Of a DNA stretch of 64,000 nucleotides, positions 53,942 to 55,382 are shown in pieces (positions within the stretch are counted from its first letter, which is position 1; every line of letters starts with the position of its first letter). The notes below the pieces were generated by a model. That model made no database searches and was not told where the DNA came from. It was given only the letters and a program-made list of their open reading frames with translations. Source of the stretch: Bacillales bacterium (GTDB lineage: Bacteria > Bacillota_I > Bacilli_A > RF39 > UBA660); assembly GCA_016288635.1 (NCBI GenBank), contig JAEEKZ010000007.1:12649-76648 (forward strand), in the 5' to 3' direction. A program made the position numbers and the translations under genes.

Positions 53942-54260
53942 AAAAAAATCAGATTGACTGGATCTGATTTCTAGTTTTTTCATATTGCTAATCGGTCAAG
54001 ATAACAATATGCTTATTCAGTGAGTTTTCTTTCTCTATATGCATACAACCTAATAGCGAATAAGAATATCTATTTTTCAAGATACTATAATACATCATGA
54101 GAACTGATATATTATTATTATACACTTGTTCTGCACAATAATTATATACCAAACACCACGGCGGTATACAGGCATATTATTCTTTAACTATATATTTTAT
54201 TATATCTCTATAATATAATATATAATAATATACCCTTTATGTATACCATATCTATTAGGT
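53942..54260 (-). ncRNA. Candidate structured sRNA, copy 1 (~320 nt)
   Basis: Runs from the promoter at 54295-54267 to the terminator AAAUCAGAU-CCAGUCA-AUCUGAUUU followed by U7. No conserved ORF. Helices covary with copy 2. Confidence 0.6.
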
Positions 54261-54266
54261 AATTTA

Positions 54267-54295
54267 ATTGTAATATATTATTATTAATTTGTAAA
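54267..54295 (-). promoter_or_regulatory. Promoter TTTACA-17-TACAAT of sRNA copy 1
   Basis: On the minus strand, -35 at 54295-54290 and -10 at 54272-54267. Confidence 0.6.
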
Positions 54296-54426
54296 TACTT
54301 TTTTGTAAATTTTTTTAAAAAACTTTACATTTTTCTAAATGCTGATTTTGTAAACCCTCTCTATTGCCCATAAAACCGCTGATTCTCGATTTTGTAAATC
54401 TGCTTTTTTATTGTGTAAAATTGCAT

Positions 54427-54754
54427 AAAAAAAATAACATTGACTGGATGTTATTTCTAGTTTGTTCATATTACCGATCAGTCACGATAGCAATATGCTT
54501 ATTCAATGAGTTTTCTTTCTCTACATGCATATAACTTAATAGCGAATAAGAATATCTATTTTTCAAGATACTATAATATACATCGTAAGAATCAATATAT
54601 TATCGTTAGCACTTTTTTTGCCAAACAATTATATACCAAATACTACGGCGACATACAAGCTGTTACAAAAGATCGATATGATACGATTAACCAATATCCC
54701 TATTGCAAATATCATATCAGTAACACACTTCTCCGTATGTCATATCTATTAAGT
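54427..54754 (-). ncRNA. Candidate structured sRNA, copy 2 (~328 nt, most divergent)
   Basis: Runs from the promoter at 54789-54761 to the terminator AAAUAACAU-CCAGUCA-AUGUUAUUU followed by U8. Confidence 0.6.
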
Positions 54755-54760
54755 AATTTC

Positions 54761-54789
54761 ATTATAATATAGTATTTTTTGTTTGTAAA
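54761..54789 (-). promoter_or_regulatory. Promoter TTTACA-17-TATAAT of sRNA copy 2
   Basis: On the minus strand, -35 at 54789-54784 and -10 at 54766-54761. Confidence 0.6.
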
Positions 54790-54872
54790 TAGTTTTAAAA
54801 TAAATTTTTATTTAATTTACAATTTTTCTTTTATTCCCTTTTATTACTGGGAAATCTAATATTAGTAAGCAC

Positions 54873-55191
54873 AAAAAAATCAGATTGACTGGATCTGATT
54901 TCTAGTTTTTTCATATTGCTAATCGGTCAAGATAACAATATGCTTATTCAGTGAGTTTTCTTTCTCTATATGCATATAACTTAATAGCGAATAAGAATAT
55001 CTATTTTTCAAGATATTATAAATCATCATGAGAACTGATATATTACGATTTTACACTTGTTCTGCAAAATATAATATACCGAATACCACGGCGACATACA
55101 AGCGGATTACCTAAATGATATAATAGACACATATCTCTATGATCAAAATTATATCAGTAACACACTTTTAAGTATGTCTGTTCTATTAAGT
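54873..55191 (-). ncRNA. Candidate structured sRNA, copy 3 (~319 nt)
   Basis: Runs from the promoter at 55226-55198 to a terminator identical to that of copy 1, followed by U7. Confidence 0.6.
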
Positions 55192-55197
55192 AATTAC

Positions 55198-55226
55198 ATT
55201 ATAGTATAGTATTATTAATTTGTAAA
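55198..55226 (-). promoter_or_regulatory. Promoter TTTACA-17-TATAAT of sRNA copy 3
   Basis: On the minus strand, -35 at 55226-55221 and -10 at 55203-55198. Confidence 0.6.
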
Positions 55227-55353
55227 TACTTTTTTGCAATTTTTTTTAAAAAACTTTACATTTTTTATTTTTTTGCTAGTGTAAACCTTTTTTATACCGC
55301 ATAAAAACGTTATATCAACATTTTGTAAATAAGTATTTTAAATGTGTAAATAT

Positions 55354-55381
55354 AAAAAAATTAAACATTGTTATGTTTAAT
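55354..55381 (-). terminator. Intrinsic terminator of the CofE-like/HADH operon
   Basis: TTAAACAT-aaca-ATGTTTAA followed by T7 on the minus strand, abutting the stop codon. Confidence 0.75.
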
Positions 55382-55382
55382 T

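Follow-up and report, generated by a model that had tools for sequence, protein, structure and literature searches.

Introduction

Three head-to-tail repeats fill a 1.5-kb gap on contig JAEEKZ010000007.1 of the Bacillales bacterium assembly GCA_016288635.1, and they raise the question of what kind of gene product, if any, they encode. We analysed the stretch from position 12,649 to 76,648 of this contig, 64,000 nt in length, which is called the window in the following; all window coordinates count from its first nucleotide. The gap is bounded by a 128-aa open reading frame (ORF; 53498-53884, minus strand), which is unannotated, has no Pfam hit and lies downstream of the first repeat unit, and by a gene resembling 3-hydroxyacyl-CoA dehydrogenase (HADH-like; 55383-56327, minus strand; Pfam 3HCDH_N and 3HCDH). 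An initial annotation had interpreted the repeats as individually promoted and terminated non-coding modules and had proposed a new family of small RNAs (sRNAs) of about 320 nt without a known match. We find that the repeats are a triplicated, divergent member of the PGK-RNA superfamily and not a new class.

PGK RNA (RF03040) is an orphan entry of Rfam, in which a 92-nt motif is filed as cis-regulatory. The motif reportedly came from the screen of Weinberg et al. in 2017, and literature searches on the PGK motif and on RF03040 found no follow-up beyond that screen. The main text of Weinberg et al., as far as it is accessible under PMC5737381, contains no mention of PGK. The window units and their relatives suggest that the 92-nt motif is the core of a much larger, independently transcribed RNA, and in the following we describe its parts, its relatives and the readings of its function that have to be weighed.

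Results

The gap consists of three direct repeats with starts at 53942, 54428 and 54873, so that the spacings of 486 and 445 bp described initially were recovered. Two contigs from other metagenome assemblies (L125 and L126) carry the same three units at the same spacing, and the array is therefore not an assembly artefact. On the minus strand, each copy forms a complete unit from promoter to terminator. The sequence TTTACA is followed after exactly 17 nt by TACAAT in unit 1 (54267-54295) and by TATAAT in unit 2 (54761-54789) and unit 3 (55198-55226), in full agreement with the promoters proposed before; those of units 2 and 3 agree with the consensus at 11 of 12 positions, and no other promoter-like site of the gap region scores better. 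Since promoter-like sites are not in excess across the whole gap region (22 found, 21.5 expected), the support for the window promoters lies in their position and conservation and not in their count. In a three-way alignment of the units the promoter is kept in all of them, and the spacer upstream of unit 2 is not kept. The predicted transcripts, extending from the 5' strand of the first helix P1 to the U-tract, comprise 53940-54260 for unit 1 (~321 nt), 54426-54754 for unit 2 (~329 nt) and 54871-55191 for unit 3 (~321 nt). All three end as expected in a hairpin with a 9-bp stem and the 7-nt loop CCAGUCA, followed by U7-8 (hairpins at 53946-53970, 54432-54456 and 54877-54901; with its U-tract, the terminator of unit 1 covers 53940-53970), and a simple terminator scan missed these hairpins only because they contain fewer than three G-C pairs.

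In the minus-strand spacers upstream of units 1 and 3 (54296-54425 and 55227-55370) we additionally observed the motif TTTACAAA(A), of which about five copies, spaced 10-30 nt apart, precede the promoter. The -35 box is itself one copy of this motif, one pair of copies forms the palindrome TGTAAA-N14-TTTACA, and the spacer of unit 2 is devoid of most copies. The copies could represent regulator sites, stacked promoters or UP-like elements.

Folded separately, each unit reaches one common architecture, with fold z-scores of -5.7, -2.3 and -3.4 for units 1, 2 and 3, respectively. In unit 1, the 5' strand of P1, ACCUAAUAG (54252-54260), begins 7 nt past the -10 box and pairs with CUAUUAGGU at 54048-54056. 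This 3' strand is located inside the loop closed by P2, a helix between CUUAUU (54059-54064) and AAUAAG (54012-54017) that corresponds to the outer helix of the Rfam PGK model, so that P1 and P2 form a pseudoknot. The invariant hairpin GAG-AAAGAAAA-CUC is found at 54022-54035, 54508-54521 and 54953-54966 in units 1, 2 and 3, and three exact copies of this 14-mer compare with 0.02 expected by chance. The P3 hairpin of unit 1 (53981-54011) exposes a loop that contains the sequence UUGACCG and is complementary to the terminator loop; in the three units, P3 has an 11-bp stem with the loop UCUUGACCGAU or UCGUGACUGAU, where the Rfam alignment marks non-canonical pairs. The same elements are present on the minus strand in unit 2 (P1, 54746-54754 with 54534-54542; P2, 54545-54550 with 54498-54503; P3, 54467-54497; terminator, 54432-54456) and in unit 3 (P1, 55183-55191 with 54979-54987; P2, 54990-54995 with 54943-54948; P3, 54912-54942; terminator, 54877-54901).

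Substitutions between the copies preserve this pairing. P1 is formed by ACUUAAUAG/CUAUUAAGU in units 2 and 3 and by ACCUAAUAG/CUAUUAGGU in unit 1, which amounts to a compensatory change between U-A and C-G (alignment columns 5/223), and the terminator stem of unit 2 carries two compensatory changes (UCAGAU/AUCUGA to UAACAU/AUGUUA; columns 307/323 and 309/321). From the three copies alone, 15 of the 100 predicted consensus pairs show compensatory double changes. The complement between the P3 loop and the terminator loop comprises 6 nt in unit 2 (UGACUG/CAGUCA) and 5 nt in units 1 and 3 (UUGAC/GUCAA), a weaker match than the 7 nt of canonical members, with the GUCA motif of the terminator loop being kept across the window subtype. 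Promoter, helices and terminator have been retained under compensatory evolution in the three copies, which suggests that the RNA itself is the selected product.

Rfam at gathering thresholds returned nothing on the three units; the sole hit of the window was a T-box leader located elsewhere. In a permissive search the best match of all three units was RF03040, with 27.8, 26.6 and 23.5 bits (E = 1.1-7.5 in a 1.7-kb search), while the gathering cutoff of this family is 50.8 bits. The initial annotation had named a confident match to a known Rfam family as a finding that would speak against novelty; a match was obtained, though not a confident one. All three units carry the core of RF03040, namely CUUAUU/AAUAAG together with an exact GAGAAAGAAAACUC, where the Rfam reference shows CUUAUC/GAUAAG around the hairpin GAGAAAGaAAACUC, and GAG-AAAGAAAA-CUC is at the same time the most conserved element of PGK RNA. 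In place of the 3' hairpin of RF03040, with a 7-bp stem and the loop ACUGAUAAU, the window units carry the 11-bp P3 hairpin described above.

Since the Rfam match alone is not confident, homology was shown via intermediates and shared architecture. The pattern CTTAT-N15-42-GAGAAAGNAAACTC-N2-10-ATAAG, which describes the shared core, retrieved three IMG/VR contigs and at least 119 genome loci; all family counts given here rest on the core-pattern matches listed and are lower bounds, corresponding to at least about 118 related units. Among these matches, nearly all loci belong to metagenome-assembled genomes (MAGs) of uncultured bacteria from gut or rumen (Bacilli, Erysipelotrichaceae, Tenericutes or Mycoplasmatota), about six are chance matches (Brachyspira, Bacteroidota) and many are bona fide PGK RNAs with 75-97 bits in Rfam. 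Only one MAG appears twice among the loci listed (L059 and L091). Eight loci (L006, L010, L021, L051, L070, L077, L078 and L103) resemble the window units along the whole 3' domain, and all of them score below the Rfam threshold. The covariance model R1, built from these eight non-window loci alone, detected the three window units with E-values of about 1e-13 (77.5 bits for the 3' domain of unit 1, 53940-54068; 82.4 bits with E = 7e-14 for unit 2; 77.6 bits for unit 3), the next best score in the 64-kb window being 19.7 bits. The same model gave 48-56 bits on a subtype with the loop CUGACA and 28-41 bits on canonical PGK loci. Detection is therefore achieved in both directions, by Rfam on the units and by R1 on PGK loci, and identifies the window units as a divergent branch of one superfamily. 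Judged by sequence and architecture, the three units are homologous to PGK RNA, though non-members by the Rfam criterion, and the proposal of a new family has to be abandoned in view of the sub-threshold RF03040 matches and the clear homology to bona fide members.

At L070, an HADH-like gene lies directly upstream of a single unit, which suggests that the window array arose by local triplication at a syntenic site. A fourth, degenerate unit upstream of the HADH-like gene of the window (56384-56507) was considered and rejected, with R1 giving 16.3 bits (E = 0.49) and an ordinary terminator and promoter being located there. BLASTN of one unit against plasmid and phage collections gave no match in either. 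We also dropped 6S, SRP, RNase P, tmRNA, retron msr/msd, bridge RNA and omega RNA as candidates, since the 5' end of the units has its pairing partner internally and not at the 3' end, none of the adjacent genes encodes a reverse transcriptase, transposase or nuclease and no Rfam matches to them were obtained.

The architecture of the window units is shared by at least about 118 units of the family: a promoter, P1 at the transcription start, the invariant hairpin, P3 and, last, a terminator with a loop complementary to that of P3. The initial view of non-coding modules that are each complete from promoter to terminator is thereby extended to the relatives. As promoter we took the best sigma-70-type site in the 480 nt upstream of each unit, chosen blind to complementarity. 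In nearly all relatives among the matches listed, the promoter reaches a score of 10.5 of 12 or more and the unit ends in its own terminator, and a hairpin with a U-run was found downstream of almost every unit. In 100 of 123 units, a run of 7 nt or more within the first 27 nt past the -10 box is complementary to the stretch that separates P2 from the first inner hairpin. This run begins 3-8 nt past the -10 box, and the start region outdoes all of about 85 control regions in 44% of units, compared to about 1% expected. The helix sequences are varied (ACUUAAUAG/CUAUUAAGU, GUCUAG/CUAGAC, CCUAGAG/CUCUAGG, AUCUCGGU/ACCGAGAU and AGUGCCUUA/UGAGGCACU). Consequently, the transcript opens with the P1 strand, whose partner lies 50-380 nt further downstream within the P2-closed loop, so that a pseudoknot is formed.

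Pairing between the loops of P3 and terminator falls into matched classes, with CUGAUAA and UUAUCAG in 80 units, CUGACA and UGUCAG in 16 and UGAC and GUCA in 6, while the mismatched combinations (CUGAUAA with UGUCAG, CUGACA with UUAUCAG) do not occur among the units listed. Two UGAC units have UGUCAG, which also contains GUCA, and the 11 cases of CUGAUAA with another loop are mostly terminators miscalled by the script. In the structure-agnostic MAFFT alignment A3, made from composites whose segments were joined by artificial GCGGCCGC anchors, 88% of cells of the loop-loop helix are paired and four of its seven pairs change on both sides; compensatory changes affect all seven P3 pairs, and at the sixth position of P2, 36 sequences have C-G and 21 have U-A. 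In the model-fitted alignment A4 of the window and CUGACA subtypes, 94.5% of cells are paired compared to 79.6% after shuffling, 18 of 33 pairs are compensatory and the covariation score of 0.437 compares with 0.147 for shuffled alignments and 0.04-0.08 for slid partners. All six pairs of its helix 5 (P3) changed on both sides, and seven of eight pairs of its helix 7 (terminator) are compensatory. It should be noted that the invariance of five P2 pairs and of the Pb hairpin is uninformative, since the collection pattern fixes them. The homologue alignment, proposed from the outset as a check on the modules, thus yielded conserved pairing with covariation and no conserved ORF.

At L006, L010, L021, L078 and L103, the linker between P3 and terminator contains a pentamer complementary to the terminator loop in its 3' part and to the first bases of the stem. 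The pentamer covaries (GUUGA/UCAAC, AUUGA/UCAAU, ACUGA/UCAGU), and the window units are without such pairing. This linker pairing and the kissing interaction of P3 with the terminator overlap and would therefore be mutually exclusive.

A related RNA of about 370 nt is present in the three IMG/VR phage contigs (L001, ~2500-2900, minus strand; L002, ~1300-1700, minus strand; L003, ~1-400, plus strand). It has the same core and the P1 pairing AGUGCCU/AGGCACU, and no Rfam match; at gathering thresholds, the phage loci gave one tRNA alone. The P3 and terminator loops of the phage RNAs fall outside the bacterial loop classes. They are flanked by a divergent repressor-like gene of the helix-turn-helix type and by a second helix-turn-helix gene, which is the position of a lysis-lysogeny switch.

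Discussion

On balance, we consider it probable that the window units encode a stand-alone structured non-coding RNA (ncRNA), which acts in trans or as a particle and for which read-through into downstream genes is incidental at some loci. We propose a model in which three tandem paralogues of one ncRNA gene, belonging to a divergent branch of the PGK RNA superfamily, would each be transcribed from their own sigma-70-type promoter. The transcript opens with the 9-nt P1 strand, which pairs about 200 nt further on inside the loop closed by P2 (CUUAUU/AAUAAG), followed by the GAG-AAAGAAAA-CUC hairpin, P3 and finally the intrinsic terminator with its loop complementary to that of P3. The product would be a discrete compact RNA that works in trans or as a particle, made of RNA or of RNA and protein, rather than a conventional attenuator of the downstream gene, while the triplication may raise the dosage of the RNA or diversify it.

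Conserved unpaired stretches are the loop AAAGAAAA and the loops of P3 and terminator, the latter two being accounted for by their mutual pairing. As far as can be read from the sequence, the invariant purine loop AAAGAAAA and the paired loops are indicative of a tertiary structure with a compact fold, or of a surface for protein binding or assembly, rather than of a base-pairing seed. The initial suggestion of a base-pairing sRNA serving as a regulatory hub found no support, as conservation resides in helices, loops and tertiary pairings and no single-stranded seed was seen, with no target search made.

The alternative that survives best is a cis-regulatory leader, either riboswitch-like or a protein- or tRNA-responsive attenuator, in which the core senses a signal and sets the efficiency of the terminator; the window would then hold duplicated tandem attenuators. 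We regard this as unlikely, while giving it appreciable weight. The window units lie on the same strand as their downstream gene, the 128-aa ORF, canonical members precede pgk, murG, a 120-aa gene (YCPNYYNIVNFDF…) and others, and overall the downstream gene is co-oriented in 91% of units, the last being a point in favour of a leader. However, the upstream gene is co-oriented nearly as often (83%), and co-orientation therefore mostly reflects a general strand bias. The downstream genes share no common theme, including PGK, MurG, LepA, FtsW/RodA, HU, rubrerythrin, dCMP deaminase, Fic, CYTH, an LPG-synthase-like membrane protein and unknowns; between the 128-aa ORF of the window and the recurrent 120-aa gene no obvious similarity was seen, and neither has a Pfam match. 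Furthermore, a separate promoter located between the RNA terminator and the start codon is conserved for each of murG, pgk and the 120-aa gene. The terminator is tied into the conserved structure by the loop-loop pairing, which could couple folding of the core to termination, but this pairing uses the terminator loop and leaves the stem intact. Complementarity between the upstream RNA and the 5' strand of its own terminator, as expected for an antiterminator, was no better than for permuted pairs (means 6.83 and 6.88), and a search targeted at the 5' region gave z = 1.1-1.7 against permutation, in a crude test of ungapped runs. In the phages, the rightward early transcript has the RNA, located between the two helix-turn-helix genes, as its first element, which would suit a leader. 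The tandem copies of the window, and likewise those of a second array at L015, each keep a strong promoter of their own, which would be needless in a pure attenuator array.

In murG-associated units (e.g. L032, L052, L058, L105, L026 and L104), 8-10 nt after the P1 5' strand (AGUUGUUA or AGUUAUUAUU) complement the 5' strand of the unit's own terminator stem. This complement is not significant family-wide, and L008 and L120 are counter-examples.

Several points weigh against the stand-alone RNA. The curators of Rfam typed RF03040 as cis-regulatory, and the core is conserved at the level of an aptamer, so that a ligand-binding aptamer would look alike. At L010 (1008-1135, minus strand) and L070 (100-227, minus strand), RNAs of the window subtype are followed only 13 nt past the U-tract by the gene of a 162-aa membrane protein with the ribosome-binding site (RBS) GAGGUGA; there is no room for a promoter, and this gene must therefore be fed by read-through of the terminator. 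In the window itself, the 128-aa ORF begins about 55 nt past the U-tract of unit 1, and direct reading of the gap between them (53885-53939, minus strand) reveals a weak promoter-like TTGCAT-17-TATAAT and the RBS GGGGAG, of which the former was not called by the promoter scan since its -35 box matches just 3 of 6 positions. The loop-loop complement of the window subtype is short (4-6 nt) and invariant, its covariation arising only from the comparison between subtypes (A4 helix 6). The scan that assembled the collection demanded the core pattern, so that spread and copy number per genome are bounded from below only, and the transcripts of the window array are themselves predicted.

A further and rather doubtful reading, drawn by analogy with other large bacterial RNAs, is that PGK-type RNAs are no gene leaders but a widespread class of autonomous RNAs of about 250-450 nt of gut Bacilli and their phages, whose complementary 7-nt loops might drive head-to-tail dimers or higher RNA-only assemblies. 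The three diverged copies of the window would then be compatible protomers or a means of raising the dosage. The data are compatible with this, since the loops show both complementarity and covariation, the second hairpin marks the exact end of the RNA and copies exist in phages; the loop pairing could also be purely intramolecular.

That each unit is instead a small-protein gene of about 30-54 aa, with the hairpins merely as its terminators, is barely credible and was rejected. It had been stated that no ORF is conserved between the copies, which needs correction, as a frame of 31-54 aa (…LKNRYSYSLLSYMHIEKENSLNKHIVILTD) is open in all three. The frame is, however, not kept in the eight closest relatives among the matches listed, where it is open for just 8-25 codons (median over all units 18). 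Its starts differ between the copies (TTG, TTG and ATG at different positions), no Shine-Dalgarno sequence was seen, and copy-to-copy substitutions keep base pairs and not codons. The openness of the frame in the three copies is therefore a by-product of sequence conservation. Two short ORFs on the minus strand, MKKLEIRSSQSDFF… (53885-53983) and MNKLEITSSQCYFF… (54335-54469), cross the terminator hairpins of units 1 and 2; their mutual similarity stems only from the repeated hairpin, and it is very unlikely that they are genes.

A last alternative is that intergenic DNA was neutrally duplicated in tandem, or that the region is what remains of a decayed mobile element or prophage, with promoter and terminator strings arising by chance. 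This would fit the very AT-rich genome and the promoter-like hexamers of the gap region, which are about equally common in shuffled sequence (22 versus 21.5), but is practically dismissed by the same architecture in more than 100 genomes, the compensatory changes within the window and across the family, the strongly negative fold z-scores and the threefold occurrence of the core 14-mer.

If the stand-alone ncRNA is the correct reading, the whole transcript and not its 92-nt piece becomes the relevant unit, including the pseudoknot formed at its start and the terminator hairpin that is part of its tertiary structure, and a trans-acting or structural role would be worth considering beside a ligand. 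The Rfam PGK model misses several branches, namely the window subtype, the CUGACA subtype and the phage copies, and an improved model would serve the annotation of PGK-type RNAs in gut and rumen MAGs. Our literature search found no description of the full-length transcript, the P1 pseudoknot, the kissing interaction of terminator and P3, the two sub-threshold subtypes, the phage copies or the evidence against simple attenuation.

Genomic context

Positions 43354-48768 on the minus strand are occupied by a rimP-nusA-infB-rbfA-truB-type operon and, after it, by genes whose products are an EAL-domain protein, an HtrA-like protease and a membrane protein of the VTT/DedA-like kind. This context is chromosomal, and the array is therefore not located on a plasmid or in an obvious prophage. 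The T-box leader mentioned above, the sole Rfam family at threshold in the window, lies at 38808-38985 (minus strand; 101 bits compared to a gathering score of 93). At 56378-56405 (minus strand), after an F420-ligase-like gene, we observed an ordinary terminator, CUAAGAU-GUAA-AUCUUAG with U7; it is followed by the string UUUUUUUAUGCAAU, which recurs directly after the terminators of units 1 and 2.

In two contigs from Tenericutes or Mycoplasmatota MAGs, OLE RNA (RF01071, 216-222 bits; L047, 7447-7927, and L011, 968-1446) is located within 4-6 kb of PGK-type RNAs, a proximity that may be no more than shared synteny.

Comparison with other RNA systems

The closest known relative of the window units is PGK RNA. 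In both, P2 with the sequence CUUAU(Y)/(R)AUAAG encloses the invariant GAG-AAAGAAAA-CUC and is followed by P3, and the hosts are MAGs of uncultured gut or rumen Bacilli, Erysipelotrichaceae and Tenericutes. Canonical members further share the promoter, the P1 strand at the transcription start and the terminator loop complementing the P3 loop. The loops themselves differ: P3 exposes UGAC(C/U)G in the window and ACUGAUAAU in PGK RNA, and the terminator CCAGUCA in the window and UUAUCAG in PGK RNA. In the window, about 190 nt with three helices lie between the P1 5' strand and P2, whereas canonical members often have extra sequence between P3 and terminator. The window is further distinguished by its three tandem copies and by a downstream gene other than pgk. 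The Rfam model of PGK RNA is restricted to 92 nt, in which the P1 3' strand is unpaired and the terminator omitted, and bears the label cis-regulatory.

Tandem riboswitches and T-box leaders are transcribed from one shared promoter and operate by mutually exclusive terminator and antiterminator helices. Like the window array, they are repeated structured elements that end in terminators upstream of a gene; in contrast to them, each window unit has its own promoter, and no antiterminator was detected. Qrr, LhrC and the csRNAs are multi-copy or tandem sRNAs of 50-110 nt that act via a conserved single-stranded seed. Here the likeness is in the side-by-side paralogues, each with its own promoter and terminator, while the window RNAs are about 320 nt long, are conserved in helices and tertiary contacts and have no evident seed.

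A further comparison is offered by raiA, ROOL, GOLLD, OLE and manA, large orphan ncRNAs of bacteria with compact folds, several of which self-assemble (PMC12286853; PMC12968392; bioRxiv 10.64898/2026.07.01.735769). For ROOL, GOLLD, OLE and manA, RNA-only assemblies have recently been shown, some of them held by intermolecular kissing loops (PMC12286853; bioRxiv 10.64898/2026.07.01.735769). PGK-type RNAs differ from these five in having no sequence or Rfam match to them. Both groups are highly structured RNAs of Firmicutes and their phages, stand-alone in the five and probably so in PGK-type RNAs, and in the five as well conserved loops kiss, some were first filed as cis-regulatory and copies are found in phage genomes.

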